In this document: piece by piece, positions 3,108-20,938 of the stretch | How the letters are laid out: each line of letters begins with the position of its first letter | Numbering within the stretch: the stretch's first letter is position 1 | DNA from: Candidatus Saccharimonadota bacterium | GTDB lineage: Bacteria; Patescibacteriota; Gracilibacteria; UBA1369; 2-02-FULL-48-14 | Direction of reading: 5' to 3' | Length of the DNA stretch: 32,000 bases | Assembly: GCA_041661045.1 (NCBI GenBank) | Contig: JBAZVE010000001.1 | Span: forward strand, 30,001 to 62,000 | Program-made: the position numbers and the translations under genes | Notes under the pieces: generated by a model | The model's database searches: none | Seen by the model: the letters and a program-made list of their open reading frames with translations, nothing else | What the model was told of the DNA's origin: nothing

Positions 3108-3162
3108 GCCTGAATTATAACATAAAATTTATGTTAATGGAAGGGCCTGCCAACTGGGGTTG

Positions 3163-3630
3163 CTAGGATTTTTCTACCTGGTTTAGTTTTCTGGGTTGGT
3201 AGTCACATAATCTTTCAAGCCAAGGCTCTGGTGTATCGCCGTTCTCTTCCGTCTTCCGTCTCAACTCCTCTGCAAGGTCTCTCATACGAGCGGCAAGCTC
3301 ATTTTCGAGGTCCGGTTCCTCCCCTCTTTTGTTCAACTCTCCTGCATACTGAGTGACATCTTCCATATCTTCCAAGGCTCGATCCATGAAGCCATTCCTT
3401 TTAAAAATTTTCGCTCGACGCAATCTATGAGCGATCTCTTCCTTAAGAGGAGCTGCCAGCGGGAAATACACTCTATCCATTTCTGCCGTCCACTGATCTT
3501 CCCACTTATTCAATAGAGCTACACTTTCTTCCGTTAGTTTCCCTGGATCGTCAGGGTCTCTTTTTATAAATCCAATGAAATCATGATCTTCTACTATTTC
3601 GTCATCTGGGGGTTCTGGAGAGGTTTCCAT
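3163..3630 (-). CDS. hypothetical acidic protein (155 aa)
   Basis: Clean ORF, Glu/Asp-rich and predicted helical (METSPEPPDDEIVEDHD...). No motif recognised. Confidence 0.55.
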   Translation of the reverse strand: METSPEPPDDEIVEDHDFIGFIKRDPDDPGKLTEESVALLNKWEDQWTAEMDRVYFPLAAPLKEEIAHRLRRAKIFKRNGFMDRALEDMEDVTQYAGELNKRGEEPDLENELAARMRDLAEELRRKTEENGDTPEPWLERLCDYQPRKLNQVEKS

Positions 3631-3694
3631 GACAATTTAATGCTGAATAGGAATTGTAGCACAAATTGATGCTACATGAAAGGCGGTGGGCATT

Positions 3695-5305: not shown

Positions 5306-5374
5306 GGGGAGAGCTTAGCATGGCAATTATTTCCTGAGTAGCAATAAAACGAGGCCGACCATGCGGTCTTTCTC

Positions 5375-5956
5375 TTATGCCGCTACTGAAAATGCACGAT
5401 TATTGTTTGCGGCTCGCCCTGTATCGAAATATTGGGTGCTTGAGTAGCCATAAGCATCGCGATCCCAAGCGCTTCCCCAGCCGTTAGCTCTAACGGCAGC
5501 TTGCGTGTGTTCTCTGCCGTCTAATCCTGTAACAACCCAAGGAATTTCACGCCCCTGCCCATCAAAAAAGGTAAAGCGCCCACCACCATCTGCGTTGGCT
5601 TTGATCACTAGGGAAACTCCGTAATTGCTGACTTGGTCTTCTAGCTGCCCGGAATAGCTGATGTCGGCGGAACTCGGTCCATTGGCCTCAGGTCCAAGCT
5701 GTGGTCCGTGCGTGTGGGCCATAGACCAAGTGGGCGTATGCGGATTGAGCCTCAGTTCTTCTTGAATCTTGGCTCTTGTTTGGTCTCCTACTTCGAACTT
5801 GTTCGTTTTAGGACTATCGCCCAGCCCCAAGCCTACACATCCCTCAACATTAAAAACCGTTCCGTCCATTATTCCACCCAAAAGCAGAGCTCCCGTTTCC
5901 GCTTCTTGATTGCGCATTTGCGCATCACCAATTCGAAGCAAATCCTCAACTGACAT
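5375..5956 (-). CDS. JAB/MPN-like (JAMM motif-like) protein, unknown role
   Basis: The listed ORF starts at 5986. An internal ATG at 5954-5956 is preceded by a perfect SD, AAGGAGGT (reverse complement of 5961-5968), 5 nt after the GGAGG core. Motifs: EAETGALLLGG, then AHTHGPQLGPEANGPSSAD (HxH-x11-SxxD; the canonical JAMM spacing is x7). Confidence 0.5.
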   Translation of the reverse strand: MSVEDLLRIGDAQMRNQEAETGALLLGGIMDGTVFNVEGCVGLGLGDSPKTNKFEVGDQTRAKIQEELRLNPHTPTWSMAHTHGPQLGPEANGPSSADISYSGQLEDQVSNYGVSLVIKANADGGGRFTFFDGQGREIPWVVTGLDGREHTQAAVRANGWGSAWDRDAYGYSSTQYFDTGRAANNNRAFSVAA

Positions 5957-6037
5957 GTGAACCTCCTTTGGTATCGTTCGTTCCATGCTGTCATTTTAAC
6001 ACTTATTTTGGCTTCGGCAAGGGTTTGGGCTAAGCAT

Positions 6038-6066
6038 TTGCTAAGGTCGTCAAAAGGGTGTATAAT
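6038..6066 (+). promoter_or_regulatory. sigma70-like promoter for the 6091-7333 operon
   Basis: TTGCTA (6038-6043), a 17-nt spacer, then TATAAT (6061-6066); 24 nt upstream of the ATG at 6091. Confidence 0.5.
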
Positions 6067-6090
6067 ATTGGATGTATTAAATGAAAATTT

Positions 6091-6378
6091 ATGCTAACAC
6101 TTAATGAAGTGATCCAAGTTGATGGTGGAGACAGACCCCTTCTTCCATCTGAAATTGATGGAGTTTTAGCCGCTGCACTTCCAGAAGACTATTCGGGGCT
6201 GATTGGGCTTCGCAGTTCAGAGTTTAGGGCACGAGTTGGCGATCTAGATTTAGGAGATTTAGTAAGAAAAGCTGAGGCAAATGCAGTAAATTCTGACCAC
6301 TATGAGCCAGGCTCTAACTCTAGTAACGCCGTACTAAGAGCGGTTGCAGCAGTTAGGCGAGACTTCCTCAATGAATAG
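6091..6378 (+). CDS. hypothetical protein (95 aa)
   Basis: ORF directly downstream of the promoter at 6038-6066. No motif recognised. Confidence 0.5.
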   Translation: MLTLNEVIQVDGGDRPLLPSEIDGVLAAALPEDYSGLIGLRSSEFRARVGDLDLGDLVRKAEANAVNSDHYEPGSNSSNAVLRAVAAVRRDFLNE

Positions 6379-6420
6379 GGCTATTTTTGATCGTATTAGG
6401 GTTACTTTTAATTATTTTGT

Positions 6421-6627
6421 ATGGATCGTGTCCCAATAGCCTTGTCTGGGCCTCAAAGATTAGTTTTAGAGGCAATCACCCTATCTCACACGGGGATGCA
6501 ATCCGCTTGGCTTAGACAAAGAACTCTTGATGAATGTGGAGCAACTTTGGGAGACTTACAAACACTATTAGAGGAAGGTTTAGTTGAGCTCAGAGCTGAC
6601 CGTTACTTCGCGACTTCAAAAAAGTAA
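6421..6627 (+). CDS. small hypothetical protein (68 aa), possibly winged-helix-like
   Basis: ORF whose stop lies 4 nt before the methyltransferase ATG. A helix-rich pattern (LVLEAITLSH...LQTLLEEGLVELRADRY) is the only hint of a fold. Confidence 0.4.
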   Translation: MDRVPIALSGPQRLVLEAITLSHTGMQSAWLRQRTLDECGATLGDLQTLLEEGLVELRADRYFATSKK

Positions 6628-6631
6628 ACCT

Positions 6632-7333
6632 ATGAAAGATACTTTTGGGCAAGCCTTGTATGGGTACTGGAAGGGCGATCATAAAACGCCTCATTTCGTT
6701 AGGCGGGAGGATGGCTTTTTAGATGAGACTCCTAATGCTGATTATTTTCGGCCCGAGCTTATGTCCAAGGAGAAAGCTTTGGTCAAATTCGCTCGTGGGA
6801 AGATTTTGGATGTCGGCTCCGGGGCTGGTCGAGCGCTACTCTATTTTGGAAAGAAGGGTTTTGATATTTGTGGAATCGACTTCTCCCCTCTTGCTGTTCG
6901 CGTTTGTAAGGAACGGGGACTAAAGGCTGAGATGAAGGATGTTTTCAAAATGCGAAAAACTTCTGCATACAATACTGTTTTGCTCTTTGGAAACAACATT
7001 GGAATTGGCGGCGATTTGAAAGGAGCCGAGAACTTACTTAAAAAATTGAACACACTTGTCGACAAAAAAGGCCGTGTGCTGCTCACCAGTATGGATGTTA
7101 GCAAGACGGACAATCCAAAGCATAAGGCTTATCACCAAATGAATCTCAAAAGGAGAAAGTATGTGGGTGAGGTGAAAATTCGAGTGGAATACAAGAAAGC
7201 CATTGGAACTTACTTCAAGTGGATTCATCTTGATTCCGAAAAACTTAAGGAACTCGCGGCAAAAACGGGGTGGAAGGTCATTTACCTTAAAGTCACTAAG
7301 GATGGCTCTTACTCGGCGGTTCTGGAGAAGTAG
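6632..7333 (+). CDS. class I SAM-dependent methyltransferase
   Basis: SAM-binding motif I ILDVGSGAGRALLYF followed by DICGIDFS. The start was moved from the listed 6584 to the ATG at 6632 (MKDTFGQ...) to avoid overlap with the upstream ORF. Confidence 0.8.
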   Translation: MKDTFGQALYGYWKGDHKTPHFVRREDGFLDETPNADYFRPELMSKEKALVKFARGKILDVGSGAGRALLYFGKKGFDICGIDFSPLAVRVCKERGLKAEMKDVFKMRKTSAYNTVLLFGNNIGIGGDLKGAENLLKKLNTLVDKKGRVLLTSMDVSKTDNPKHKAYHQMNLKRRKYVGEVKIRVEYKKAIGTYFKWIHLDSEKLKELAAKTGWKVIYLKVTKDGSYSAVLEK

Positions 7334-7389
7334 ACTCTAGAATCGTAGTAGGTCGCACGCGGATAATTTTGAACTTTTCTGATGTCCAC

Positions 7390-7749
7390 CTAAGTACGCA
7401 ATGGAGGCTCTTCTTCACCCTTTGGAAGTACTGGCAATGGTTCTATAGGAGGAGGCGGGAGCACAGGTAATGCCTGACAACATTCACATGAACAACCGAT
7501 TGGATGGCCTGGGCCACAAGGTTCCGATGGATCTACTATCGTGGACTCTTCTAAATTTATTGAGCAGCCTTTCTCCACCCTCTGCGCAAATTCAACCTGC
7601 CAACAAGGAACTCCTTCTTTTGAAAATGGAGTGGGGTCGACTTGAGTTTGAGTTGGCTTTATCCCTTCTTCAGCCAAAACAGGGCTGGAGCTTGCCAGAA
7701 AGATGGATAACATTGTTTCTTTCATCTCTATATTGGTTGATACTGCCAC
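7390..7749 (-). CDS. small Cys/Pro-rich protein, probably secreted
   Basis: Signal-peptide-like MKETMLSIFLASSSPVLA (from the internal Met at 7725), a Cys cluster (PCGPGHPIGCSCECCQ) and a proline-rich tail (LPVLPPPPIEPLPVLP). Confidence 0.45.
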   Translation of the reverse strand: MAVSTNIEMKETMLSIFLASSSPVLAEEGIKPTQTQVDPTPFSKEGVPCWQVEFAQRVEKGCSINLEESTIVDPSEPCGPGHPIGCSCECCQALPVLPPPPIEPLPVLPKGEEEPPLRT

Positions 7750-7793
7750 TCATTTTAACATTAATTGTCGAAAAGTCATCAACCTGTCTACAC

Positions 7794-8639
7794 TCAGCAA
7801 AAAACTGAAATCGCATATCCTTCAAGATAAATCTTCTTAGCGCTTCCAGCTCCTTCCATTCGTACGGTCAAATCCCCCATTCCTTCTAAACCAGGACCAC
7901 AACGGATAAGGAATTCTTGCTGACTGGATCTTAAGTGTTTTTGTAAGTATTCAGCGAGAGCTATGGAGCCCACACCGCAGACCAAATCTTCTTCATCTCG
8001 ATTCGGGAAATGACGCGCGTGAGCATCTAGAGCTTCAGTTTCTAATGCAAAAGGAAACAATCCTGTGATTGGATCCTCATCGGTTGAGTAACGAGTACAA
8101 AATGCTCGAATTGCCTGAAAATCTCTCTGAATTTTAAGCAAATTTTCGAGTGTTACAGGAATCATAAGTTTCATTTTCCCTGGAGCGCCTACGAGTTGAA
8201 TGGGCAGGGACTCAAGAATGTGATCAATATGAAGGATCTCAGCAAGTGCTTCTTTTGGAATTTCCAAATCTCTAAATCCTGGAAGGGACTGAGTTTGAGA
8301 AATTTTGCCATCAGGAAAGCGAGTCGCTTCAATGACTGTTCCTTTTGTGTTCACAAACTTTCCCTCCATCACTTGGCTTTGAGGCGGAAAGGCAAGATGT
8401 GCTGCCGCTAAGGTGGCATGCCCACAAGCGAAAGTTTCAGTCGCCCCGTTTTCATAGAGGAAACGGATTGGAATTGGCTTTTTTCTTGTATCAATAATGG
8501 CTGCTACTGTGCATGCAGACTCTCTCACTAGTCTCATGGCTTCCTCGGAATCAAGATCTGCATCAATAACTAGAGCTGGATTCCCCAACTTTGGATTTTT
8601 TGTGAAGGCCTTTACTGTGGTCGCTTGAATCTGTTGCAT
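7794..8639 (-). CDS. PhzF-family isomerase-like protein
   Basis: 281 aa. N-terminal VKAFTKNPKLGNPALV and overall length and pattern typical of the PhzF/YddE family. No competing ORF. Confidence 0.8.
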   Translation of the reverse strand: MQQIQATTVKAFTKNPKLGNPALVIDADLDSEEAMRLVRESACTVAAIIDTRKKPIPIRFLYENGATETFACGHATLAAAHLAFPPQSQVMEGKFVNTKGTVIEATRFPDGKISQTQSLPGFRDLEIPKEALAEILHIDHILESLPIQLVGAPGKMKLMIPVTLENLLKIQRDFQAIRAFCTRYSTDEDPITGLFPFALETEALDAHARHFPNRDEEDLVCGVGSIALAEYLQKHLRSSQQEFLIRCGPGLEGMGDLTVRMEGAGSAKKIYLEGYAISVFC

Positions 8640-8647
8640 GGAGTGAG

Positions 8648-8675
8648 TTTAGCAGATTTTTCGACATTTAATATC
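8648..8675. repeat. degenerate junction repeat R0
   Basis: tttagcagatttttcgacatttaatatc aligns with ttttagtagattttcgacttatttcttg at 10137-10164. Confidence 0.35.
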
Positions 8676-8693
8676 CACTCGTCTGCGACGAGG

Positions 8694-8707
8694 GTGGTGG
8701 GCCCGGC
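8694..8707. repeat. 14-bp copy of the tRNA(CAU) 3' end
   Basis: gtggtgggcccggc is identical to 17556-17569, which is the 3' end of the tRNA gene on the same strand. Confidence 0.5.
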
Positions 8708-8731
8708 CGTGCAAGAGACGAATTTGATTGA

Positions 8732-8917
8732 CTATTTCCTTAATGCCTCACTTCCTCCTAACGCTTTTTGAAGTCCTAACTGTCTTCTGACTTGATCTAC
8801 TTCACCACCTGTTCTTCCAAGAGCACCTGCCGAAATTATTAATTCAGGGATTCTAGGCTCAGGCTCCCGACTAATCATAGCAGCTAAGCTTTCCAGTCTT
8901 GTTGGCCCTCCTGGCAT
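8732..8917 (-). CDS. small hypothetical protein (61 aa), cassette 1
   Basis: ORF 31 nt downstream of a strong promoter (8949-8978) and bounded by repeat elements. No motif recognised. Confidence 0.4.
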   Translation of the reverse strand: MPGGPTRLESLAAMISREPEPRIPELIISAGALGRTGGEVDQVRRQLGLQKALGGSEALRK

Positions 8918-8948
8918 AATATTTTGGTTAAGTTATTATCAAGGTAAG

Positions 8949-8978
8949 ATATTACATCATTTCTTCACATCCTGTCAA
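8949..8978 (-). promoter_or_regulatory. sigma70-like promoter (minus strand)
   Basis: On the minus strand: TTGACA (reverse complement of 8973-8978), an 18-nt spacer, then TAATAT (reverse complement of 8949-8954). Confidence 0.5.
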
Positions 8979-8990
8979 TATTTGTGCGTG

Positions 8991-9025
8991 TGGTCACACT
9001 AGTCGCTCGACTTATTTTTTGTTGG
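8991..9025. repeat. junction repeat R1
   Basis: tggtcacactagtcgctcgacttattttttgttgg. It ends 1 nt before the stop codon of the 9026-9574 ORF. Confidence 0.8.
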
Positions 9026-9574
9026 TTATGAAGCTGTGGCTCCTCTTGACCCCTGAGCTAATTTCCCTTCTAGGATGGCTAATAATGCCTGCGTTCTCCT
9101 GATGTCACCCGCCATGCTAATCAGGCCCTCGTTGCGTCCACTACTTAATGAAGTACCTTCTTGAAATTCTGGAAGGACCCTCCATGCTCTATATCCCTCA
9201 ACAGTAGCTACTTGCCATCCAGAAGATGCTAAAGGTCTTTGCAGATTAACACCTAGCGTATCTCCCCTACTAATTAGTTCAACCTCCGTCCATGGGAAGT
9301 CCCCGGCGTATGTAGTTTGTACAAGCAAGCGGGTCTGTCCGCCTTCACCCTGTTGACCGTGCTGAGCTAAGAGCCTCTGAGCCCTAGTTCGATTGCTATC
9401 AATAAGCTCTTCCAAACCTCCATTCATGCCATTGCTGCTCTCTAAGAAAGCCTCGTCACCCTTCCTCATTCTACTTTCCTCTTCATCTTCTAAGGCCTCT
9501 GTTGCTTCGCTGTCTAAGAGTCCACCTCCATCATACACTGCTCTGAGCCTAGGGAATGGGGATTCTGTTCTCAT
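9026..9574 (-). CDS. hypothetical protein (182 aa), cassette 2
   Basis: Clean ORF bounded by R1 and R2. No motif recognised. Confidence 0.55.
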   Translation of the reverse strand: MRTESPFPRLRAVYDGGGLLDSEATEALEDEEESRMRKGDEAFLESSNGMNGGLEELIDSNRTRAQRLLAQHGQQGEGGQTRLLVQTTYAGDFPWTEVELISRGDTLGVNLQRPLASSGWQVATVEGYRAWRVLPEFQEGTSLSSGRNEGLISMAGDIRRTQALLAILEGKLAQGSRGATAS

Positions 9575-9626
9575 TTTTAAGGAGTTATTGGTTGGTAGGT
9601 AAACTTACCATACGAAAATTGGATTT

Positions 9627-9673
9627 AGCAAACTATTAAAAATTTAATAGTGGTGGGCCTCGACTTATTTTTC
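9627..9673. repeat. junction R2: exact copy of the tRNA(CAU) flank and 3' end, fused to the repeat core
   Basis: 9631-9659 (aactattaaaaatttaatagtggtgggcc) is identical to 17537-17565. It is followed by the core cctcgacttattttt (9658-9672). Confidence 0.85.
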
Positions 9674-10097
9674 AATAATTATCAAAGCCAGATTCACCAA
9701 AAACAGTTTTCTTGGCAAACCTTAGCACATCTTCAAAAGGAGACATGTTGCTGATACTTAGTCCTTCAACCTTGCAAGCTTTTATACCTCCAATAGAAAG
9801 GCTTATCTGAATGTTAAGAAACTCGGTTTTCTTGAAGCTACAGTTCTCAAAGTTACAGCCAACAAGTGCAGATTCTAAAAAAATACAATTATTGAAAGTG
9901 CAATCATTAAAAATTCCGCTTGCAAAATCCCCTCCAAGAATCAAACAGTTTTCAAAAACTCTACCCATAAAATCGCTGTCCATTACATCTCCACTTCCTA
10001 AGCCTCCTGCATAATTTGTAGTTCTCAAGTCGAAAAAACCAGTGAAAGTTTCTTCACTTCTATAAACCCGATCAAATTCTTCTAAGTTTTTTGTCAT
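9672..10097 (-). CDS. pentapeptide-repeat protein (141 aa), cassette 3
   Basis: Tandem 5-residue periodicity: CTFNN CIFLE SALVG CNFEN CSFKK TEFLN. Confidence 0.75.
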   Translation of the reverse strand: MTKNLEEFDRVYRSEETFTGFFDLRTTNYAGGLGSGDVMDSDFMGRVFENCLILGGDFASGIFNDCTFNNCIFLESALVGCNFENCSFKKTEFLNIQISLSIGGIKACKVEGLSISNMSPFEDVLRFAKKTVFGESGFDNY

Positions 10098-10148
10098 ATT
10101 AAAAAATGCAGTTTTACTTTAGCAAACTTTCTGCGTTTTAGTAGATTT

Positions 10149-10178
10149 TCGACTTATTTCTTGGTAGTGATTCGAGTG
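10149..10178. repeat. junction repeat R3
   Basis: tcgacttatttcttggtagtgattcgagtg. The right arm GTGATTCGAGTG is shared with R5 and R8. Confidence 0.7.
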
Positions 10179-10224
10179 AAAGTTTGAACTGGGGGCTAAT
10201 GTAGACAGGAGTATAGTGCTTTGA

Positions 10225-10253
10225 TTGACATGGCTTACTGTATGTAGTATTGT
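10225..10253 (+). promoter_or_regulatory. cassette-internal promoter
   Basis: TTGACA (10225-10230), a 17-nt spacer, then TATTGT (10248-10253). The same elements are conserved at 15429-15457 in the paralogous cassette. Confidence 0.55.
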
Positions 10254-10274
10254 ATACCACTGTAACAGATTGAT

Positions 10275-10910
10275 ATGCCTATATCATCAAAAGTTGAAGA
10301 GGGCGTCGACTATGAGCCAGGGTTCCCTGAAGATTTACGCATTGAAGAGCTCTTCCTATTGGTAGATTCTTGGACAGAGGCTCTTCGTAAGGCGTTGATC
10401 TCTTTAGGTTACAATCCCTTTACAGGAACCAGAGAGCAAAAACCTGAGTACGCAGATCACTTTGAAGGAAGAACTGTTTTGCCAGATGGTAGAGAAGTAA
10501 GGGCCTATTTTATGACTGTTGGAAAGTTCCATGATGGTCAAAGGGTAGCAAATGACCGCTTGGAACTCAGTATAACTCCGGTAAGAGAAGATCAGCATGG
10601 CATCAGCACTGTTTCGATGGGTGAAAATCTTAGATTAGAAGAGGTTAGACTCCTCTTGGGTATACCAAGCCATCACACTAAATGGGTGACCCCTTTCTAT
10701 GCCAGATCCAGGGATACAAAGGATCCTAGAGATTATACCTTTGACGAGCAAAGAGTTTATATCCAGTATGCTCGTTTGCTAAAACAAATCTTAGATCTGC
10801 ATTTCCAACATTCTCTGGGAAGAGTAGCAGAAGACTCTACAGATGTGACAAGCGCGACCGTGACACCGCGTCTTTTAGAAGCTTCAGAAGTTATAGAGGA
10901 AAAAAATTAA
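10275..10910 (+). CDS. hypothetical protein (211 aa), cassette 4; paralog of 15479-16102
   Basis: MPISSKVEEGVDYEPGFPEDL... aligns end to end with the 207-aa product of 15479-16102. No motif recognised. Confidence 0.7.
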   Translation: MPISSKVEEGVDYEPGFPEDLRIEELFLLVDSWTEALRKALISLGYNPFTGTREQKPEYADHFEGRTVLPDGREVRAYFMTVGKFHDGQRVANDRLELSITPVREDQHGISTVSMGENLRLEEVRLLLGIPSHHTKWVTPFYARSRDTKDPRDYTFDEQRVYIQYARLLKQILDLHFQHSLGRVAEDSTDVTSATVTPRLLEASEVIEEKN

Positions 10911-10925
10911 GCAGCCTCAAGTTTT

Positions 10926-10957
10926 GTCACAATTTCCCTCGACTTATTTTTTGGTGG
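10926..10957. repeat. junction repeat R4
   Basis: gtcacaatttccctcgacttattttttggtgg. It supplies the last codons and the TAA stop of the 10944-11456 ORF. Confidence 0.75.
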
Positions 10958-11456
10958 CTCTCAATAGAGTAATCCCTACATCTATTATGTAGACTATGCT
11001 CAGGACTGACAGCCCCAAAGTTAGAAGACCCATTGTATCTATCATTTCAACTCTTAAGTTATCCCAATTTGTGTTGCCTGCTTCCATTAGGCCTATGATT
11101 GTAGAATTGAAATCATTTTTTATAAAAAGCAAGGTGGGCCAAGCACCAATAAGGATTCCTGAGAATAGATAAAGCCATTTTTGTGAAGAATTACTGGATG
11201 TATTGTTTTTTGTTTTTCCTGTTACAAAAAGCCAGCGTTTTTTGCCGTCCAAATGGTCCATAGAAGCGTGGAGCATCTCATACTGACCTGTTTGTAACTG
11301 ATTATTCAAATTCTCAAAGCTATCACCCCCCTCATGGCCGATACAATATGTTTGAATCCCATAAATAATTCGACTCTTGTGCCAAGAAAGATAAAGGACC
11401 AAAAGAGTGATGCAGTTCACAATCAAAGCGATAAGACTAAGAATGGAATCAGGCAT
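10944..11456 (-). CDS. small integral membrane protein (170 aa, ~3 TM), cassette 5
   Basis: Hydrophobic segments ILSLIALIVNCITLLVLYLSW, WLYLFSGILIGAWPTLLFI and LLTLGLSVLSIVYIIDVGITLL. Confidence 0.65.
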   Translation of the reverse strand: MPDSILSLIALIVNCITLLVLYLSWHKSRIIYGIQTYCIGHEGGDSFENLNNQLQTGQYEMLHASMDHLDGKKRWLFVTGKTKNNTSSNSSQKWLYLFSGILIGAWPTLLFIKNDFNSTIIGLMEAGNTNWDNLRVEMIDTMGLLTLGLSVLSIVYIIDVGITLLRATKK

Positions 11457-11487
11457 GTAAGAACTGTGTTAGTAGATAAGCCTATAA

Positions 11488-11496
11488 ATTATACCA
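11488..11496 (-). promoter_or_regulatory. extended -10 element TGgTATAAT (minus strand)
   Basis: The reverse complement of attatacca is TGGTATAAT, 31 nt upstream of the ATG at 11456. The same attataccag string recurs at 12437-12446. Confidence 0.45.
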
Positions 11497-11528
11497 GTGC
11501 TATAGAGTCTTGAAATACATCTTGGAAT

Positions 11529-11590
11529 GCTGCACTTTGTGCAGTATGGTCACACTAGTTCCTCGATTTATTTTTTGGTGGTGATTCGAG
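11529..11590. repeat. junction repeat R5 (hairpin module, core and right arm)
   Basis: gCTGCACtttGTGCAGtatggtcacactagttcctcgatttattttttggtggtgattcgag. Confidence 0.85.
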
Positions 11591-11597
11591 TAAAAAA

Positions 11598-12410
11598 TCA
11601 TAAGATCAGTTCTCCTTCCGTATTAAAAAGAGCTACATTTTCAAAAACCGATCTTATAAACGCTACCTCATCTTTGTCTTCAGCTAATTTTGGTGGCAAA
11701 ATAATTCCTGATATAAAGTTCCCAGGTATACCGCACAAAATTGAAGATAACCTTTGCCCTTCGGGTGAATTCGGGTCATACGGCAATTGATTTATAATCC
11801 CTTTCATTTCTTCTCTCCCCTCAGCGTTATATGGATCCATATGTAGAAGTTCTTTCAATTCAGCAATGTTAGGGTCAATTAGAATTGCTACTTGATCATT
11901 CGTTCTACTGTTTTTGTTTGGCAAAAAAGTGCGTTCCATTTTTGAACTTTTCATTATAAGAGAGCCATCAGGACGCCGTTTTTCATCTGGCACATGGTAC
12001 CAATCCACATAATCCTTTACCGAGGTATCGTGCGGTATTTTATAAAAATCTGCACAGAAATGTGTTTCACTATCTTCAGGTATACCTATCAATTCTCCTG
12101 ATAACACCCCATTTGCTTGCAGAGCTTGGATTTTCTCTCTTGAATAAGATGTTCCGTGAACAAGTGTTCCCGCTACAAGTGGAGTTAAGCCAGCTTGAAT
12201 ACGTATTTGCAAAGGATTTGGAACCTTTAAGGTACTTAATCTTTGAAATAGACCCCATTGTTTTCTTACCTTTGTAAGCTCTTCATCGTTCAACTCCTTC
12301 TCGAGAATCATAGTATCTGGAAGAGGCAATCCAGCTGCCTCCTTCACTTCTGGACTAGTTGCTTCTCTTGCCACCTCCTCTTCAGGTTTTTCTAGGTCTA
12401 AATCTCTCAT
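11598..12410 (-). CDS. hypothetical protein (270 aa), cassette 6; weak H-Y-E ADP-ribosyltransferase-like pattern
   Basis: Clean ORF. LVHGTSYSREKIQALQANGVL resembles the HG[ST]...I...G[LV] NAD-binding motif of the PARP, diphtheria toxin and Tpt1 fold. HFCADFY and DEVAFI are possible second and third motifs. Confidence 0.6.
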   Translation of the reverse strand: MRDLDLEKPEEEVAREATSPEVKEAAGLPLPDTMILEKELNDEELTKVRKQWGLFQRLSTLKVPNPLQIRIQAGLTPLVAGTLVHGTSYSREKIQALQANGVLSGELIGIPEDSETHFCADFYKIPHDTSVKDYVDWYHVPDEKRRPDGSLIMKSSKMERTFLPNKNSRTNDQVAILIDPNIAELKELLHMDPYNAEGREEMKGIINQLPYDPNSPEGQRLSSILCGIPGNFISGIILPPKLAEDKDEVAFIRSVFENVALFNTEGELIL

Positions 12411-12436
12411 TAATTTATCTGATTATAAATCAGCTC

Positions 12437-12445
12437 ATTATACCA
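12437..12445 (-). promoter_or_regulatory. extended -10 element TGgTATAAT (minus strand)
   Basis: The reverse complement of attatacca is TGGTATAAT, 26 nt upstream of the ATG at 12410. Confidence 0.45.
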
Positions 12446-12510
12446 GATTTGCAAAAAACTAACCAGTGATGAGGTTTTAGCAAGACATTTCTGTACAGTA
12501 AAAACCTTGA

Positions 12511-12547
12511 ATGGTCACACTAGTTCCTCGACTTATTTTTTTGGCGG
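12511..12547. repeat. junction repeat R6
   Basis: atggtcacactagttcctcgacttatttttttggcgg. An 8-bp palindrome, ctgtacag, lies at 12491-12498, where R5 and R7 carry their hairpin. Confidence 0.85.
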
Positions 12548-12578
12548 TAGTACGGATGAAAATCGCTCAATAGACTAA

Positions 12579-13763
12579 TCAGACTGACTTACTGGCTACT
12601 TTTTTACGCATGATTGGCAAGACTATCAAGAAGCCTACGAGCATTAATGCCGTCAAAACGATGAGGGGGATTTTTTGACTCTCCAAGGAATCGCTGGACC
12701 ATCCGTATAAAATGGGCCCTATGATCACGGCCGCCTGAGAAACAAAAGAGTAAAAACCGAATTCCGTGCCTGAATTTTCTGGCTTTACCACTCGAGCATA
12801 GTGGGCTCTTAGTATCGACTGGCTATTCCCTACCGCTAACCCACCCAATATTGAAATCAAAATGACCGTTGGTGCGTAGGGTGGGAGCAAAAGAAGCACA
12901 AAGGCCACCAGCATACAGATCATGGAGCTTGAAAATATAGTCGCCATTTTCCCTTTCGCAGCTAAGCGACCGCCTATTAGCGTAGCCGGAAAGGCTACCA
13001 GTTGAATGAGCAAAAGCATGTATCCGATTTGCATTGAAGTCAGTCCCAGTTCTTTTGAGCAATACAAAGCAAAGAAGAGTATGAAAACGGTGATGCACTC
13101 GCTGATGATCCAAAACCCCAAAAGGAACTGTATTTTTTGTTTACGAGTTAAAGTTACTGATTCCTCGTAGCTCGCCGGTAAAGCACTGAAAGACTTCAGA
13201 CCTTTGAGTGCTAATCCTGAGAAAAATGTATAAAAAATGCTGACGCTCAAAAAAACAGGCAGTGAAAATTCCGAACTTTGGCTTTGTATGATGAGTACAA
13301 TGAGCAGACTTAGGATTCCTCCGACATAACCGAAACCCCACGCGAAACCGCTGTAGCGATAGGATTCGGGCCCTTGAGAAATATGAGGCAATACAGAATC
13401 TGAAAGCGATAGTGAGGCAATGAAAATGGCCTGCGTGAGGATAAAAAGTGGAGCAACCAGTGTCTGGGAAAATGAAGTGGCTAGCCCCAACACAATCATT
13501 CCCACGGAGCTTAGAATGATTGTCCACTTTAAGAATCTATATTTTCCATATTTATCAGAAATTTTTCCCAACCACAAAGCTAGTAAGATCCCTAAAAAGG
13601 TCGCGATGGCATTTGCCGTCCCCCACGCCGCAAGCGGATATCCAAAATTGATGAGTACGGTCGCAAAATAAGCTGGGAGAAGAAACGCCCCATAGGAAAG
13701 TATGTAGCTGGAATTTGCAAAATCGTAATAAGCCCAACTCCGTACTATGCTGTTTTTGTTCAT
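12579..13763 (-). CDS. MFS transporter (Atg22/UMF1-like), cassette 7
   Basis: 394 aa and highly hydrophobic, with about 10-12 TM segments. The N-terminal WAYYDFANSSY signature is typical of the UMF1/Atg22 MFS subfamily. Confidence 0.8.
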   Translation of the reverse strand: MNKNSIVRSWAYYDFANSSYILSYGAFLLPAYFATVLINFGYPLAAWGTANAIATFLGILLALWLGKISDKYGKYRFLKWTIILSSVGMIVLGLATSFSQTLVAPLFILTQAIFIASLSLSDSVLPHISQGPESYRYSGFAWGFGYVGGILSLLIVLIIQSQSSEFSLPVFLSVSIFYTFFSGLALKGLKSFSALPASYEESVTLTRKQKIQFLLGFWIISECITVFILFFALYCSKELGLTSMQIGYMLLLIQLVAFPATLIGGRLAAKGKMATIFSSSMICMLVAFVLLLLPPYAPTVILISILGGLAVGNSQSILRAHYARVVKPENSGTEFGFYSFVSQAAVIIGPILYGWSSDSLESQKIPLIVLTALMLVGFLIVLPIMRKKVASKSV

Positions 13764-14578
13764 GGTGCCAGGTTAAACTGTTGTGTATAAACCTCTGGCC
13801 TTCTTAGCTTAAAATAAGGCTTTTGATCCCTAGTTCTAGTGGCTAGTTCCATTTCAATATCTGCATAAACTATCTGTTCTTGATCGTTCGCCTTTACGAT
13901 CACACCACCGTTTGGATCTACAACAATGGATTCCCCACAAAAGTCCATTTTCCCTTCAAGGCCCACTCGATTGCACATCGCAATGAAAACAGAATTTTGC
14001 ATTGCAGGGACTCGAAGTTCCCATTCAAACATTTCAAGAGGTTCGTCCTTGGTATTGGCCGTTGGGATAATGATGATTTGTGCTCCCTGTAAAGCACACG
14101 AGCGAATGCTTTCTGGGTAGTGCCTATCAAAACAAATCACCACACCCACTTTTCCAATGGCCGTGTTGTATACCTTAAAGCCGCTTTCAGATGGGTTGTA
14201 GTAATCCTGCTCGTAGAAACCCTCTGCTTGAACAATATGAACCATTTTAGAAATACCTAAAATTTCCCCATTTGAATCGATCAATGGAGAGGCATCAAAC
14301 TTATCCGCGCCTTCGTTTAGGTAAAAATTTGGCACTGCCACCATCTTCAGCTCTTTACACTTTTCCTGTAGTGATTTAATCACCTGGTCTTCGATTCCTA
14401 TTTCGTAGGATGAGGTGTCTTTGCCTTTATACTGAGGAAAGAATGGGTAAAACTGGAGTTCTGGGAAACAAATGAGGTTTGCTCCATTTTTAGCTGCTTC
14501 CTCCATTGTTGAGATAGCTTTTTCAATATTTCCTTGAATGTTCTCTCCGAGTTTTAGTTGAGCTAAAGCGATTTTCAT
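13760..14578 (-). CDS. carbon-nitrogen hydrolase (nitrilase superfamily), cassette 7
   Basis: Candidate Glu-Lys-Cys triad contexts CFPELQ, ...HYRK-like region and VVICFDRHYPE. Overlaps the downstream MFS gene by 4 nt (ATGA), indicating an operon. Confidence 0.85.
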   Translation of the reverse strand: MKIALAQLKLGENIQGNIEKAISTMEEAAKNGANLICFPELQFYPFFPQYKGKDTSSYEIGIEDQVIKSLQEKCKELKMVAVPNFYLNEGADKFDASPLIDSNGEILGISKMVHIVQAEGFYEQDYYNPSESGFKVYNTAIGKVGVVICFDRHYPESIRSCALQGAQIIIIPTANTKDEPLEMFEWELRVPAMQNSVFIAMCNRVGLEGKMDFCGESIVVDPNGGVIVKANDQEQIVYADIEMELATRTRDQKPYFKLRRPEVYTQQFNLAP

Positions 14579-14628
14579 GATTCAAAAATACCAAAAACTA
14601 AGGAATTTGCCAGACCAAGATTTTTTAA

Positions 14629-14678
14629 GCTGCACTTCGTGCAGTATGGTCACACAAGTCCCTCGATTTATTTAATTG
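14629..14678. repeat. junction repeat R7 (hairpin module and core)
   Basis: gCTGCACttcGTGCAGtatggtcacacaagtccctcgatttatttaattg. Confidence 0.8.
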
Positions 14679-14725
14679 TTATCAAATTAAAGTTAATGTA
14701 TAATAGTTATAACTAATTAATAACT
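14676..14725 (+). promoter_or_regulatory. phd-doc promoter with palindromic operator candidates
   Basis: TTGTTA (14676-14681), a 17-nt spacer, then TATAAT (14699-14704). This is followed by the perfect 10-bp palindrome AGTTATAACT (14705-14714) and a further ATAACT (14720-14725) abutting the ATG. Confidence 0.5.
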
Positions 14726-14968
14726 ATGTTCTATAAACTTATAAAAGTAGGCAATTCAGTCGGAGTCACTTTACCAAGAAAACTACTTGACCTGATGCAG
14801 CTTGAGCAGGGTGAAGATGTTATGATCGAACCCAATATGGAAACTCGAACTATAGTCATCAAACCTGTTTCTGTGGCGAAAGAACAGGTGAATAAATCGG
14901 TCATTGAAGGGACCGCAAAGTTTATCAAACGCTATCCAAAAGCACTTAAAAACTTGGCTGGAAAATGA
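14726..14968 (+). CDS. AbrB/SpoVT-fold antitoxin (Phd-type partner of Doc), cassette 8
   Basis: KVGNSVGVTLPRKLLDLMQLEQGEDV is a swapped-hairpin AbrB/MazE motif. Overlaps the doc gene by 4 nt. Confidence 0.8.
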   Translation: MFYKLIKVGNSVGVTLPRKLLDLMQLEQGEDVMIEPNMETRTIVIKPVSVAKEQVNKSVIEGTAKFIKRYPKALKNLAGK

Positions 14969-15348
14969 AATACTTGAGCGTTCAAGATCTGATCTATATC
15001 AACCAAGCTGTGGTGGATGCATCTGGTGGCACTATTGGCGTGCGTGATGTGGGCCTAATAGACTCCGCAGTGAATAGGCCACGCGCCACTTTTGGAGACG
15101 ATGACTTGTATCCAAGCTTATTTGATAAAGCTGCTGCACTTTTTCATTCAGTAATTTTCAACCATGCTTTCTTAGATGGGAACAAAAGAACGGCCGTTGC
15201 TTCAGCTGCCCAACTTTTATACCTCAATGGATTTGAGCTTATCACCAGCGAAAAAGAACTTGAATCTTTTACCATGAAAATCGTTGACGAAAGATTGGGG
15301 TTGGATGAAATTGCAAAGTGGCTAGAAAAATATTCTATTGAATGTTAG
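14965..15348 (+). CDS. doc: Doc (death-on-curing) Fic-fold toxin
   Basis: The Fic/Doc active-site motif HAFLDGNKRTA is present. 127 aa, typical Doc length. Confidence 0.9.
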   Translation: MKYLSVQDLIYINQAVVDASGGTIGVRDVGLIDSAVNRPRATFGDDDLYPSLFDKAAALFHSVIFNHAFLDGNKRTAVASAAQLLYLNGFELITSEKELESFTMKIVDERLGLDEIAKWLEKYSIEC

Positions 15349-15382
15349 ACCATCAACTTATTTTTTAGTGGTTATTCGAGTG
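15348..15382. repeat. junction repeat R8
   Basis: gaccatcaacttattttttagtggttattcgagtg. The ~100 nt that follow are conserved with 10179-10274. Confidence 0.65.
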
Positions 15383-15428
15383 AAAATTTGGACTGAGGAC
15401 TAATGTAGACAGGAGTATGGCGCTTTGG

Positions 15429-15457
15429 TTGACATGGCTTACCATATGTAGTATTGT
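15429..15457 (+). promoter_or_regulatory. cassette-internal promoter (paralog of 10225-10253)
   Basis: TTGACA (15429-15434), a 17-nt spacer, then TATTGT (15452-15457). Confidence 0.55.
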
Positions 15458-15478
15458 ATGCCACTGTAACAGATCAAT

Positions 15479-16102
15479 ATGCCTATATCATCAAAAGCTG
15501 AAGAGGGCGTCGACTATAAACTAGGGTTTCCTGAAGATTTATCCATTAAAGAGCTCATCCCGTTGGTAGATTCTTGGACAGAGGCTCTTCGTGAGGCATT
15601 GGTATCTTTAGGTCACAATCCCTTCACTGGATCACGAGAGCAAAGCCCTGAGTATCCTGATCACTTTGAAGGAAGAACTGTTTTGCCAGATGGTAAAACA
15701 ATAAGTGCCTATCTTGTGAGCCATTCAAAGTTCCATGATGCTGAACGGGTGGCGCGTGACCGCTTGGAACTCAGTATAACTCCAGCAAGAGAAGACCAGT
15801 ATGGCATCTTCACTGTTTCGAGGGGTGAAAGGCTTAGATTACATGAGGTTCGAATCCTCTTGGGTAAACCAAGCCGTCCCACTAAATGGATGCCCTCTGT
15901 CTTTCTTGGGCTTATAAGGAATCGTAGTGATTATGAGGAGGAAACAGCTTATCTTCAGTATGCTCGTGCGCTAAAACAAATCTTAGATCTGCATTTCCAA
16001 AGTTCCCTCGAAAGATCAGAAGGAGCCTCTACAGAAGTGACAACGGCGGACATTACGCTGGGTCTTTTAGAAGCTTCAGAAGTTGGAGTGGGGGAAAAAT
16101 AA
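15479..16102 (+). CDS. hypothetical protein (207 aa), cassette 9; paralog of 10275-10910
   Basis: MPISSKAEEGVDYKLGFPEDL... is collinear with the 211-aa paralog. Confidence 0.7.
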   Translation: MPISSKAEEGVDYKLGFPEDLSIKELIPLVDSWTEALREALVSLGHNPFTGSREQSPEYPDHFEGRTVLPDGKTISAYLVSHSKFHDAERVARDRLELSITPAREDQYGIFTVSRGERLRLHEVRILLGKPSRPTKWMPSVFLGLIRNRSDYEEETAYLQYARALKQILDLHFQSSLERSEGASTEVTTADITLGLLEASEVGVGEK

Positions 16103-16115
16103 GTAGCCTGAAATT

Positions 16116-16157
16116 TGGCCACACCAGTCCGTGACTTATTTTTTGGTGGTTATCAAG
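16116..16157. repeat. junction repeat R9
   Basis: tggccacaccagtccgtgacttattttttggtggttatcaag. Confidence 0.75.
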
Positions 16158-16172
16158 ACAAGCATTTAGTTT

Positions 16173-17486
16173 TCAAGTGTCAAAATTGATCACCGTAGAT
16201 GTTAACCAATTTGGATCATAAATATCCTTGACTAAGGCCATGTGTGAATTATCCGCTTGTGACCAAATATCCTCTAAAAAATCTATAAATTTAGTGATGT
16301 TTCTTTTGGAAAAGATATTTGTATTAAACTTTTCTTTCTCTGATTTTAATGGCTCACGCCCAAACAAGTTATCATTCTCTTTATCGGTAAAGACTGCGTC
16401 ACAATAAGGTAAAAAGGTCGATAAAGATTCAGAATCACTTATCATACCTCTGCTTGGATTGTTCCCACCCTCCTTGAGTTTTCTTGCCAAAGATGCAAAA
16501 TATGTGGCTGAGAGCCTAACACAGGGAACATTCAATATGGTCTTGGAATTAAGGCAATCCATTATTGTTGAAAGGATTTTGTCCTCACCTATCGAATGTG
16601 CATTTGCAATTTTGTATAACTTTTCAAATAGGTCTACAGCTGGTGGTTTCGACATTTTTTCTAAGGCCTTACCTTCCATTAATTTTTTTATGTACTTTAC
16701 ATATCGACCGAACCACCTTAACTTTTCTTTACCAAAATCTTGCGCCTCCTCCCACACTAAATCATCAAAACTTTTTTTATCCTCCCTCCACCTATCATAA
16801 ACATGATCTGTTAAATTTGTGTGTGAATCATCGCGTACTTTTCTCACTGATGACACTCCTTCTTCAGTTAGAGGAAAATCCAAGCGAAAGTCGTCTGTTG
16901 CTTTTGCTCTGAAATACCAACAATTTGGATCCATATCAAAACAGTCCTGCTCATTTAGAAATATCGTTGCATCCTGTTCTCCCTTAAGATAATTTTCAAA
17001 ATGTTTGGCTACTTGTGCATCTTGAACAAGGTTGTGATGCTTAAAAGCAACTTTATTCGCCAGTATTTTTTGAAAAAACTGTAAGTCATTAAATTCTGCT
17101 GCCGTTATTGATTCTTCAATATGAATATCTGAATAAGGACAAATAATCAGATTGTATTTAATAAGCTTAAGCAGTTTTTCAAAAACTTGCATCCAATACT
17201 TATCTTCCATGGCTTTTTTATGTTTTTTACTTTTTGGATTAGCTACAAACATCAAATTGCTCAAAACAAACTGATCAAGGTATATAATTTTCTTTTTTAT
17301 TTCGGGTAACTTACTTTGTTCGTGGAACCGACAGTTTGCACACAATCTAATTAAAACACTTATTCGGGTGTCTGGAAGTGGCATGACCGAAAATACGCCA
17401 TATTTATTACCTTTACATTTTGGGCATAGCTTGAATGGACTCGATAAATGGTCATGAATATCCATATCGCTAGAGTTTTGCGTCAC
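16173..17486 (-). CDS. hypothetical protein with N-terminal C4 zinc ribbon (437 aa), cassette 10 (next to the tRNA)
   Basis: CPKCKGNKYG...CANCRF at the N-terminus. GTG start as listed; ATG alternative at 17463-17465. The rest is unrecognised (IYLDQFVLSNL...ICPYSDIHIEESI). Confidence 0.65.
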   Translation of the reverse strand: MTQNSSDMDIHDHLSSPFKLCPKCKGNKYGVFSVMPLPDTRISVLIRLCANCRFHEQSKLPEIKKKIIYLDQFVLSNLMFVANPKSKKHKKAMEDKYWMQVFEKLLKLIKYNLIICPYSDIHIEESITAAEFNDLQFFQKILANKVAFKHHNLVQDAQVAKHFENYLKGEQDATIFLNEQDCFDMDPNCWYFRAKATDDFRLDFPLTEEGVSSVRKVRDDSHTNLTDHVYDRWREDKKSFDDLVWEEAQDFGKEKLRWFGRYVKYIKKLMEGKALEKMSKPPAVDLFEKLYKIANAHSIGEDKILSTIMDCLNSKTILNVPCVRLSATYFASLARKLKEGGNNPSRGMISDSESLSTFLPYCDAVFTDKENDNLFGREPLKSEKEKFNTNIFSKRNITKFIDFLEDIWSQADNSHMALVKDIYDPNWLTSTVINFDT

Positions 17487-17527
17487 TTTGATAGATTCTT
17501 ACCAGCAAACTCCCCCAACTTTTCCGT

Positions 17528-17565
17528 ACTTTCTCGAACTATTAAAAATTTAATAGTGGTGGGCC
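17528..17565. repeat. tRNA-proximal sequence resembling the junction repeat (candidate att site)
   Basis: actttctcgaactattaaaaatttaatagtggtgggcc compared with R6 agttcctcgacttatttttttggcgg. Both share a TTYCTCGA(A)CTnATT block, an A/T run and TGGYGG. Confidence 0.55.
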
Positions 17566-17633
17566 CGGCTGGACTTGAACCAGCGACCAAGAAGTTATGA
17601 GCCTCCTGCTCTAACCAACTGAGCTACGGGCCC
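17557..17633 (-). tRNA. tRNA with CAU anticodon, probably tRNA-Ile2 (lysidine type) rather than elongator Met; CCA encoded
   Basis: Reverse complement GGGCCCGTAGCTCAGTTGGTTAGAGCAGGAGGCTCATAACTTCTTGGTCGCTGGTTCAAGTCCAGCCGGGCCCACCA. The G1:C72 pair excludes an initiator. C4/C5 in the acceptor stem and the TGGTCGCTGGTTCAAGTCCAGC arm closely resemble E. coli ileX as I recall it. Confidence 0.85.
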
Positions 17634-20389: not shown

Positions 20390-20938
20390 ATGAAATTCAC
20401 TTCTAAACAATTCGTCCTCAAAAATGGGGAGAAGCTGTCCATCCGTGAAGGAAAAAAATCCGATGCATCTGATTTAATTAAATACTTGAATCAAGTGGCT
20501 GGAGAAAGTGATTTTTTAACTTTTACCGAAGGGGAATTTAAGATGACAAAAAAGGGGGAGGAAGCCTTCGTAGAAGAAGCACATAAAGCTGATAACGAAA
20601 TTTTCCTCGTCGCGGAAATTGGCAAAGAAATCGTCGGAGTCTTGAATGTGAATGCTAATTCCAAAAAAAGAATGAAGCACATCGGCACTTTTGGAGTCTC
20701 ACTTAAAAAAGCTCATTGGGGTAAAGGGATTGGGGCTCTTTTTATTCAAACTATGTTGGACTGGGCGAAATCTAACGGAGTGACGCGAAAAATGAATCTT
20801 AGTGTAATGGCCAACAATAAACGTGCCATGAAGTTGTACAAAAAGTTTGGCTTTAAAAAAGAGGGTCTCCTCAAGCGAGATGCTTTGATCAATGGTAAAT
20901 TCTACGATGCTTATTTGATGGGACTTTTAATAGACTAG
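20390..20938 (+). CDS. GNAT-family N-acetyltransferase
   Basis: Acetyl-CoA-binding pattern WGKGIGALFIQTMLDWAK and ...NKRAMKLYKKFGFKKEG. Confidence 0.85.
   Translation: MKFTSKQFVLKNGEKLSIREGKKSDASDLIKYLNQVAGESDFLTFTEGEFKMTKKGEEAFVEEAHKADNEIFLVAEIGKEIVGVLNVNANSKKRMKHIGTFGVSLKKAHWGKGIGALFIQTMLDWAKSNGVTRKMNLSVMANNKRAMKLYKKFGFKKEGLLKRDALINGKFYDAYLMGLLID

Follow-up and report, generated by a model that had tools for sequence, protein, structure and literature searches.

A tRNA-anchored array of integron-like mini-cassettes in Candidatus Peribacteria, probably accumulated by site-specific recombination

Chromosomal integrons and clusters of attC sites lacking integron-integrases (CALINs) hold ordered series of unrelated and mostly single-gene cassettes, each with one co-oriented end site and with a fixed proximal entry. 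Their cargo includes toxin-antitoxin, acetyltransferase, methyltransferase and orphan genes, with stop codons near or in the site. The tycheposons of Prochlorococcus islands are multi-gene elements with their own integrase, separated by partial tRNA copies (bioRxiv 10.1101/2020.12.28.424599). The locus analysed here resembled both. It lies in a 32-kb stretch of contig JBAZVE010000001.1 (the window), where nine copies of a junction site of about 43 nt, named R, divided about ten unrelated gene units and the array ended exactly at the 3' ACCA of a tRNA-Met gene. It is probably a tandem array of recombinase-less mini-cassettes that are served in trans and that accumulated at the 3' end of tRNA-Met by site-specific recombination. 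Such an array would belong with the additive islands anchored at tRNAs, as a form that has converged on the logic of integrons, and is considered new; in the literature, no paper was found that links Peribacteria with integrons or describes this locus.

An earlier note on this DNA, made from its letters and open reading frames (ORFs), had described an ordered array of unrelated units, each bounded by one conserved and uniformly oriented site, and had placed its anchor exactly at a tRNA 3' end. This description held, since nine units carried one R each, all R lay on one strand, and the array ended at the terminal base of tRNA-Met (17557-17633). The single conserved junction repeat of that note resolved into two junction elements, R and a leader named L, of which only R was constant. 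Among its weaker copies, those at 9658-9673, 10149-10178, 10926-10957 and 15348-15382 overlapped R sites, and the one at 8648-8675 proved to be L-like. The cargo was as the note had named it, with Pfam confirming the pentapeptide protein, the major facilitator superfamily (MFS) transporter with CN_hydrolase, and the MazE/AbrB-type antitoxin with Fic/Doc, and with no family for the other ORFs. The island was also more AT-rich than its flanks, as two spot counts of the note had suggested (GC 0.35-0.44 vs 0.45-0.52). Its features, from the tRNA outwards, were as follows (labels with digits, such as L003, denote related loci).

17557-17633, minus strand: tRNA-Met(CAT), the anchor and proposed insertion point (ARAGORN; Rfam tRNA model, 70.5 bits)
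17557-17569: tRNA-Met 3' end, ...GCCGGGCCCACCA, read on the plus strand as TGGTGGGCCCGGC
17504-17556, minus strand: L-type leader of the tRNA-proximal cassette, with the palindrome CTATTAAATTTTTAATAG and then ...GTTTGCTGG (L profile at 17551-17504, E 0.009; 92% identity to 9624-9659)
16173-17486, minus strand: cassette 1, a 437-aa orphan with an N-terminal CxxC...CxxC (ORF; no Pfam, NCBIfam, PADLOC, PHROG or PDB match)
16113-16156, minus strand: R site 1 (nhmmer E 6e-10)
15479-16102, plus strand: cassette 2, inverted, a 207-aa orphan with a promoter-like site at 15429-15457 (10/12)
15344-15379, minus strand: R site 2, with the 5' half kept and the doc stop codon overlapping the 3' half (nhmmer E 1.6e-7)
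14726-14968 and 14965-15348, plus strand: cassette 3, inverted, a MazE/AbrB-type antitoxin (PF04014) and a Fic/Doc toxin (PF02661)
14676-14704: promoter-like site of cassette 3 (10/12)
14644-14681, minus strand: R site 3 (nhmmer E 1.2e-8), adjoined at 14629-14644 by the hairpin GCTGCACTTCGTGCAG
13760-14578 and 12579-13763, minus strand: cassette 4, a CN-hydrolase (PF00795, 2.8e-43) and an MFS transporter (PF07690, 2.7e-18)
12510-12549, minus strand: R site 4 (nhmmer E 7.5e-11)
11598-12410, minus strand: cassette 5, a 270-aa orphan (ORF, no family match)
11544-11589, minus strand: R site 5, the best copy of the window (95% to consensus; nhmmer E 1.4e-13), adjoined at 11529-11544 by the hairpin GCTGCACTTTGTGCAG
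10944-11456, minus strand: cassette 6, a 170-aa orphan with its stop codon within R (blastn: arrays of L003, 651-814, and L023, 5772-6013)
10921-10962, minus strand: R site 6 (nhmmer E 2.8e-8)
10275-10910, plus strand: cassette 7, inverted, a 211-aa orphan (locus tag WC777_00215) with a promoter-like site at 10225-10253 (10/12)
10139-10175, minus strand: R site 7, degenerate (nhmmer E 5.9e-6)
9672-10097, minus strand: cassette 8, a pentapeptide-repeat protein (Pfam; the blastn homologues were two L002 array cassettes)
9624-9684, minus strand: hybrid junction R' (nhmmer at 9655-9684, E 3.3e-5)
9026-9574, minus strand: cassette 9, a 182-aa orphan whose stop is a TAA within R
8989-9032, minus strand: R site 9 (nhmmer E 4.1e-12)
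8708-8988, minus strand: the most distal unit, without R, holding a 61-aa ORF (8732-8917) and a promoter-like site (8978-8949)
8694-8707, minus strand: 14 nt identical to the sequence at the tRNA 3' end (13 from the tRNA itself and 1 more), which make a direct repeat of the classical att type with 17556-17569

The ORF of cassette 2 was a paralogue of that of cassette 7 (81% nucleotide identity to 10149-10964), which was also its sole database homologue, and the homology between these two cassettes ran exactly from R to R. Own promoters had been claimed for the three inverted units; these plus-oriented units indeed held three of the four best promoter-like sites, each at 10/12, and most window units had promoter-like sequences of their own. 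The orphan cassette proteins were considered as hidden recombinase or defence genes, and sequence searches of Pfam, NCBIfam, PADLOC, PHROGs and PDB were empty. In a set of 5.8 billion proteins, homologues of the cassette proteins were self-matches or the same-genome paralogue only.

In the tRNA sense, R read ATAACCACCAAAAAATAAGTCGAGGRACTWGTGTGACCA, its 3' end being ...GTGTGACCA. The pattern CTCGAYTTATTTTTTGGTGG, with at most three mismatches, matched the window seven times, always on the plus strand and between 9006 and 16149 (0.00 expected, 100 shuffles), and the left half of R, TGGTCACACTAGTYCCTCGA, matched four times (0.01 expected). A profile (nhmmer) built from 21 copies in six genomes retrieved nine sites in the window (8989-16156, E 1e-13 to 3e-5), all on the minus (tRNA) strand, and nothing better than E ~3 outside the island. 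Compared with the consensus, the window copies were 59 to 95% identical, and these values followed no trend from one end of the array to the other. Between species, the conservation of R far exceeded that of neutral DNA, with a mean identity of 93% over 39 nt where the neighbouring suf genes reached about 73-75%. The retention of the same 39 positions while suf genes differed by about 25% points to recognition of R by a protein.

Stop codons were often within R or at most 30 nt away, as for the window ORFs ending at 9026, 9672 and 10944 (the last being the case in which the earlier note had already seen the stop codon supplied by the repeat) and for the L002 ORFs ending at 3596 and 6384. Genes were oriented both ways in the arrays; the orientation of R never flipped. 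Two linked forms of R were observed, GAGGAACTAG and GAGGGACTTG, and a 5-bp stem (AAGTC/GACTT) was possible only in GAGGGACTTG.

The exact junctions defined the unit. In the tRNA sense the layout was tRNA...GGGCCCACCA, then units of the form cassette...R in series, then older DNA. The whole array of L004 consisted of tRNA...GGGCCCACCA, L-DNA methylase-R, L-kinase-like gene (inverted)-R and an unrelated core gene, and that of L006 of the tRNA, L-one gene-R and a core gene. Because these small arrays display it completely, the unit is read as an optional L, one or more genes, and R. Two other divisions, one closing each unit at the CCACCA inside R and one opening it with R's 3' part, were rejected, as they predicted wrong outer junctions for L004 and L006. 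Cassette DNA began directly after the tRNA ACCA in L003, L004, L005/L017, L006, L009 and L022; at the tRNA of L022 there was no L, and the TAG of an inverted gene abutted TGGTGG. At the other end, the last R of L004 and L006 stopped at its own ACCA against unrelated core DNA, which differed between species. No sequence to the right of ACCA was conserved across the compared junctions.

L consisted of two to five A5GT-type decamers ending in GTTTGCTA, sometimes with the palindrome ACTATTAAAATTTTTAATAG in front, and its opposite strand read TTAGCA-16-TATACT, which is promoter-like. It starts many cassettes, is optional and probably serves expression. In the window, the L profile recognized only the tRNA-proximal L. 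A role of L as an essential recombination arm was rejected, as several cassettes of the window lacked L and so did the cassette next to the tRNA in L022. A hairpin or palindrome was also observed directly after ACCA at several R sites (11529-11544, 14629-14644), at the tRNA (17538-17557), at the distal tRNA-end copy (8676-8694) and at 9632-9651, three different hairpin sequences sharing that position.

The distribution of R was narrow. An exact-pattern scan of one genome per species, across 185,579 species, found R only in four metagenome-assembled genomes (MAGs) of Candidatus Peribacteria, in one stretch each, three of the four stretches being beside tRNA-Met; a metagenome scan added one 1-kb contig only. 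Orthologous loci were fetched via homologues of SufC, which lies about 0.6 kb from the tRNA. L009, L015, L017, L022, L023 and L024 shared a conserved frame, namely maf, rpsT, two conserved genes, the variable array, tRNA-Met and sufCBDS. Among the loci fetched in this way, R was found twice in L008, once in L009, twice in L017 and three times in L022; it was weak in L023 and L024 and absent in L015. In total, 28 R sites were obtained in nine Peribacteria lineages, each time at this locus (the window, L002, L003, L004, L005/L017, L006, L008, L009 and L022), and R was co-oriented with the tRNA in all 21 sites of the loci where the tRNA is visible. The array stood directly at the 3' end of an intact tRNA in the window and in eight related loci. 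Gene order at the locus, for which the earlier note had called for a comparison of related genomes, was variable rather than invariant.

Sister species gave evidence of growth at the tRNA end. L017 and L022, 89.5% identical across suf, had a racemase and a 220/204-aa gene in common as distal cassettes, arranged alike, and their tRNA-proximal cassettes were wholly different, with one methyltransferase cassette in L017 and four different units in L022. Together with cassette DNA lying right after ACCA in eight related lineages, these differences agree with the tRNA end as the insertion point, as had been suggested. Cassette families recurred at different array positions in different species:

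DNA methylase family: L002, L004, L008
SAM-methyltransferase family: window 6632-7333, L002, L023
pentapeptide protein family: window, L002 (twice)
170-aa orphan family: window, L003, L023
317-aa gene family: L002, L003

As a separate observation, the contig of L018 (Logan SRR31757421; the sample carries the L017 species) ended, at position 1, exactly at the last base of tRNA-Met, a pattern no more than suggestive, which would arise in a population whose members differ from the base that follows ACCA onwards.

The sequences show how the arrays are built, that R is conserved and points one way, where its junctions lie to the base, that sister species differ in a polar manner and that the same cassette families return; the recombination reaction, its circular intermediates and the enzyme are what we infer. 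Each cassette comprises one gene or gene pair, in either orientation, and ends in one directional R. The R of a circular cassette would be joined to the tRNA end by a site-specific recombinase whose gene would lie elsewhere in the genome or on a helper element, with the exchange point at or within the shared ACCA; the tRNA would therefore be left intact and reusable as a target. New cassettes would enter beside the tRNA and push the older ones distally, where their R sites would decay. Cassettes would leave as circles when two R recombined with each other, or one R with the tRNA end.

The candidate enzyme class is the large serine recombinases, one of which, the sole recombinase found at this site among the relatives, was encoded there in a closed genome (L008, CP064962.1). 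The tRNA-Met 3' end of that genome was overlapped by the gene for a large serine recombinase of 527 aa, whose Resolvase, Recombinase and Zn_ribbon_recom domains each exceeded the Pfam cut-offs. It belonged to a 5.75-kb element (3701-9473) that also encoded an SMODS/AGS_C protein (a cyclase of the type found in cyclic-oligonucleotide-based anti-phage signaling systems) and that lay between the tRNA and an L/R cassette array, with a 9-nt direct repeat of GGCCCACCA on either side. This element shows that the tRNA-Met end serves a site-specific recombinase as its target in this clade. Its reconstructed attP had GTGCAA...TTGCAC inverted ends about 53 nt apart. Relatives of the L008 enzyme were found neither in the window (tblastn) nor in the other loci or IMG/VR, and a search of IMG/VR for R, the tRNA end and the serine recombinase, as a viral or plasmid source, gave no matches.

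Several observations weigh against accumulation by site-specific recombination. Among the substantial ORFs of the 32-kb window none showed a recombinase domain, as the earlier note had stated for an integrase, and no recombinase was found beside eight of the nine arrays, those of L003, L004, L009, L017 and L022 among them. The attachment arms of the L008 element do not resemble R. Since nothing to the right of ACCA is conserved, R and the tRNA site share only 4 nt, which is unusual for sites at which tyrosine or serine recombinases act on double strands. No circular cassette or empty-site variant was seen, and five samples of the L009 species, compared for strain polymorphism, had near-identical arrays (0-14 differences). 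Cassettes common to several species were no more similar than core genes, and therefore gave no sign of very recent transfer; the cassette genes being orphans, they have no known donor context. Many R sites of the window were decayed (59-95%), and its array may therefore be inactive or largely fossil.

Two true copies of the tRNA end, both absent from the earlier note, were found inside the island. One is the 14-nt copy at 8694-8707, next to the distal unit. The other is part of the hybrid R', in which the 5' half of R, AAAAATAAGTCGA, runs into the final 9 nt of the tRNA, GGCCCACCA (9651-9659), the same 9-mer that flanks the L008 element; after this hybrid site (9651-9684) came the same palindrome and leader as after the real tRNA-Met. 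Such copies, here at the most distal unit and at one internal junction, are typical of classical integrative elements. They record two or more integrations of that kind, in which the genuine tRNA 3' end was duplicated, and the island therefore mixes event types. The other eight junctions of the window carried R, which was not detectably derived from tRNA. R as a decayed 3' half of tRNA-Met was rejected, the global alignment score of 14.0 equalling the shuffle mean (13.95) and the tRNA-Ala control scoring higher (16.0); the blocks common to both by eye were ATAAC, AAGTC.AG and ACCA.

Partial tRNA copies inside the island, growth at a tRNA 3' end with new DNA proximal and old DNA decaying distally, and a gene content hypervariable between relatives are traits in common with tycheposon islands (bioRxiv 10.1101/2020.12.28.424599). 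The present units differ from tycheposons in being 0.5-2 kb long and without recombinase, and in having a dedicated separator site that shares only ACCA with the tRNA.

Elements without a recombinase also accrete elsewhere. Cis-mobilizable elements (CIMEs) lie beside integrative and conjugative elements (ICEs); the composite islands of staphylococcal cassette chromosomes (SCC) and pseudo-SCC at rlmH are served in trans by the Ccr large serine recombinases. Such CIME and pseudo-SCC elements usually span many kb and are flanked by two target-derived repeat copies. Accretion of non-autonomous elements of these kinds (CIME/ICE, SCC) has been reviewed (PMC5704250). The array described here resembles them in its recombinase-less, att-bounded elements stacked at the 3' end of a conserved gene, and in being able to adjoin an autonomous element, as in L008, where the serine-recombinase element at the tRNA end adjoined R cassettes. 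It differs in its single-gene units with one R each and in the L008 recombinase arms being unlike R, and mobilization in trans is here a proposal.

The ssrA-specific islands of Dehalococcoides reportedly each carry their own recombinase gene and an ssrA-derived repeat, and are not made of single-gene cassettes. They share with the present locus integration at the 3' end of a small stable-RNA gene (PMC3146451). Xer-dependent modules (pdif modules and integrative mobile elements exploiting Xer, IMEX) are similar in their small gene modules, short recombination sites and recombinase encoded elsewhere. Unlike their sites, R lacked a dif-like 11-6-11 inverted structure and formed direct, not inverted, repeats; moreover, this locus lies beside a tRNA and, by contig coordinates, probably near the start of the chromosome record rather than at a terminus.

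The alternative that survived best, although unlikely, involves no dedicated recombinase. R and L would act as portable homology, RecA-type recombination would swap, duplicate and delete cassettes taken up by the cell, and gene conversion would keep R uniform. In its favour, every junction offered, in R plus L, a nearly identical stretch of about 45-100 nt, a linked recombinase was not found, and the duplicated pentapeptide cassettes of L002 were 86% identical overall and mosaic-looking. The outer junctions are left unexplained by homology of this kind, as the first cassette began exactly after ACCA and the last R ended at ACCA against unrelated core DNA. Moreover, L was absent from several cassettes, growth was polar and at the tRNA end, and the constancy of 39 R positions against the divergence of suf points to a protein that recognizes them.

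Next in rank, and likewise improbable, is that R and L are expression or regulatory modules (terminator or insulator plus promoter and leader, or a silencer operator) in an island of ordinary integrative elements, of which the serine-recombinase element is an example, that later decayed. In genes of tRNA sense, stop codons were closely followed by R and start codons closely preceded by L, the opposite strand of L is promoter-like, and the true tRNA-end duplications display classical integrations at this place. A regulatory role fits poorly with R itself, which lacked a terminator hairpin or T-run. Its folding at four junctions, on both strands, was no better than shuffled (z -2.0 to +0.9), with no hairpin spanning R, and the Rfam scan of the window returned tRNAs only and no family for R. 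Terminator-like sites were not enriched over shuffles and, apart from one chance overlap, none fell at R; promoter scans of the window were not enriched over shuffles either. R also kept its orientation beside inverted genes, where it would lie on the wrong strand, the last R adjoined core DNA with no gene to regulate, and R was confined to one locus per genome.

A true integron array with a very divergent attC and its integrase outside the window, that is, a CALIN, appears very improbable. The likeness noticed by the earlier note was real for the logic of the array, with unrelated and mostly single-gene units, one 3' site each in uniform orientation, a toxin-antitoxin cassette and many orphans. 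One ORF per site, co-orientation and proximal entry are common with integrons and are not defining alone. The identity failed on what defines integrons, namely attC, cores and IntI. R had no R''-L''...L'-R' inverted repeats and no RYYYAAC/GTTRRRY cores, and the attC-like hairpins that the note had proposed to look for at the junctions were not present in the folds of either single strand (the z scores above). Insertion was at the 3' end of a tRNA and not at an attI beside intI, no integrase was adjacent, and no intI was found in the approximately 200 kb of related loci inspected. Likewise, in place of a common promoter of the Pc type, most units had promoter-like sequences of their own, and the host is a bacterium of the candidate phyla radiation (CPR).

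R as a generic dispersed intergenic repeat (of the repetitive extragenic palindromic, bacterial interspersed mosaic element or miniature inverted-repeat transposable element type), a finding that the earlier note had named as a refutation of its reading, or as an assembly artefact clustered here, is just as improbable. In its favour, MAGs are the source of the data, and the locus is one at which Logan contigs break. Against it, each MAG had one R stretch, no profile matches were found in the core flanks of the examined loci or outside the arrays in any locus, and NCBI, JGI, ENA and Logan assemblies made independently, among them a closed genome of 1.34 Mb, displayed the same architecture.

A bolder form of the trans-served cassette array, to which we give nearly but not quite an even chance, is that Peribacteria (CPR/Patescibacteria) possess an independent integron-like platform for gene capture. 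The tRNA-Met 3' end would play the part of attI and the double-stranded R of about 43 nt that of attC, and an unlinked recombinase, possibly a large serine recombinase, with an essentially one-sided reading of its sites, would insert and excise single-gene cassettes from a clade-wide pool. If true, this would be a second, independent solution to the problem solved by integrons, with a simple double-stranded site and a target left intact. The genomes of CPR bacteria are tiny and the cells rely on hosts, and the ways in which accessory genes are acquired and retained in this group are little known. The cargo of the arrays comprised methylases, toxin-antitoxin pairs, acetyltransferases, a transporter and many orphans, and the locus offers a handle on gene flow in uncultured ultra-small bacteria, with a defined 43-nt site, a defined target and few closed genomes. 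If the enzyme reads only one side of the crossover, it may be of interest as a programmable landing-pad recombinase.

Beyond the most distal unit, the following features were found on the left side of the window.

8648-8675, minus strand: L-like leader upstream of the PhzF-like gene (77% identity to 9624-9649; it resembles L, not R)
7794-8639: PhzF-like gene
about 7365-7400: faint R-L remnant
6632-7333, plus strand: SAM-methyltransferase, 82% identical to an L002 array cassette
2112-2188: tRNA-Ala(GGC), probable left bound of the variable region

Besides the PhzF-like gene and the SAM-methyltransferase, 2189-8639 contained orphan ORFs. This part is probably an older, decayed portion of the same variable region, which would extend left to tRNA-Ala at 2188. 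It is read so because the SAM-methyltransferase had no flanking sites except the remnant, and because tRNA-Ala is much nearer in relatives, the distance from tRNA-Ala(GGC) to tRNA-Met being 15.4 kb in the window against 2.9-4.5 kb in L015, L023 and L024. The PhzF-like gene was flanked by inverted copies of TTTTCGACAWTTAAT (8658-8672 on the plus strand, 7754-7768 on the minus strand), and the older part also encoded a 536-aa orphan (3695-5305) with a weak match to PHROG 15341 (function unknown, E 1e-7).

Other insertions were observed around the locus. In L009 (9258-9585), as in L010-L013 and L028, the anticodon loop of tRNA-Met(CAT) carried an insertion of about 245 nt, because of which ARAGORN misses this tRNA; the insertion was matched by Rfam's model for group I introns (65.1 bits, E 2.7e-16). 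The SufB of L009 (10783-13326) was 847 aa long with Intein_splicing and LAGLIDADG domains, against 469 aa and no intein in the window, which indicates an intein in the L009 sufB. A gene for a GNAT acetyltransferase lay between sufB and sufD in the window (20390-20938) and in L015, L017 and L022, and was absent from L008 and L023; it is a variable insertion within the suf operon. Just after sufS, the window (22885-23483) encoded a 127-aa PIN-domain toxin and, upstream of it, a partner of 72 aa. The same position held DUF7793 in L017 and PIN, Phd and a hydrolase in L015, and may be a second small variable spot.

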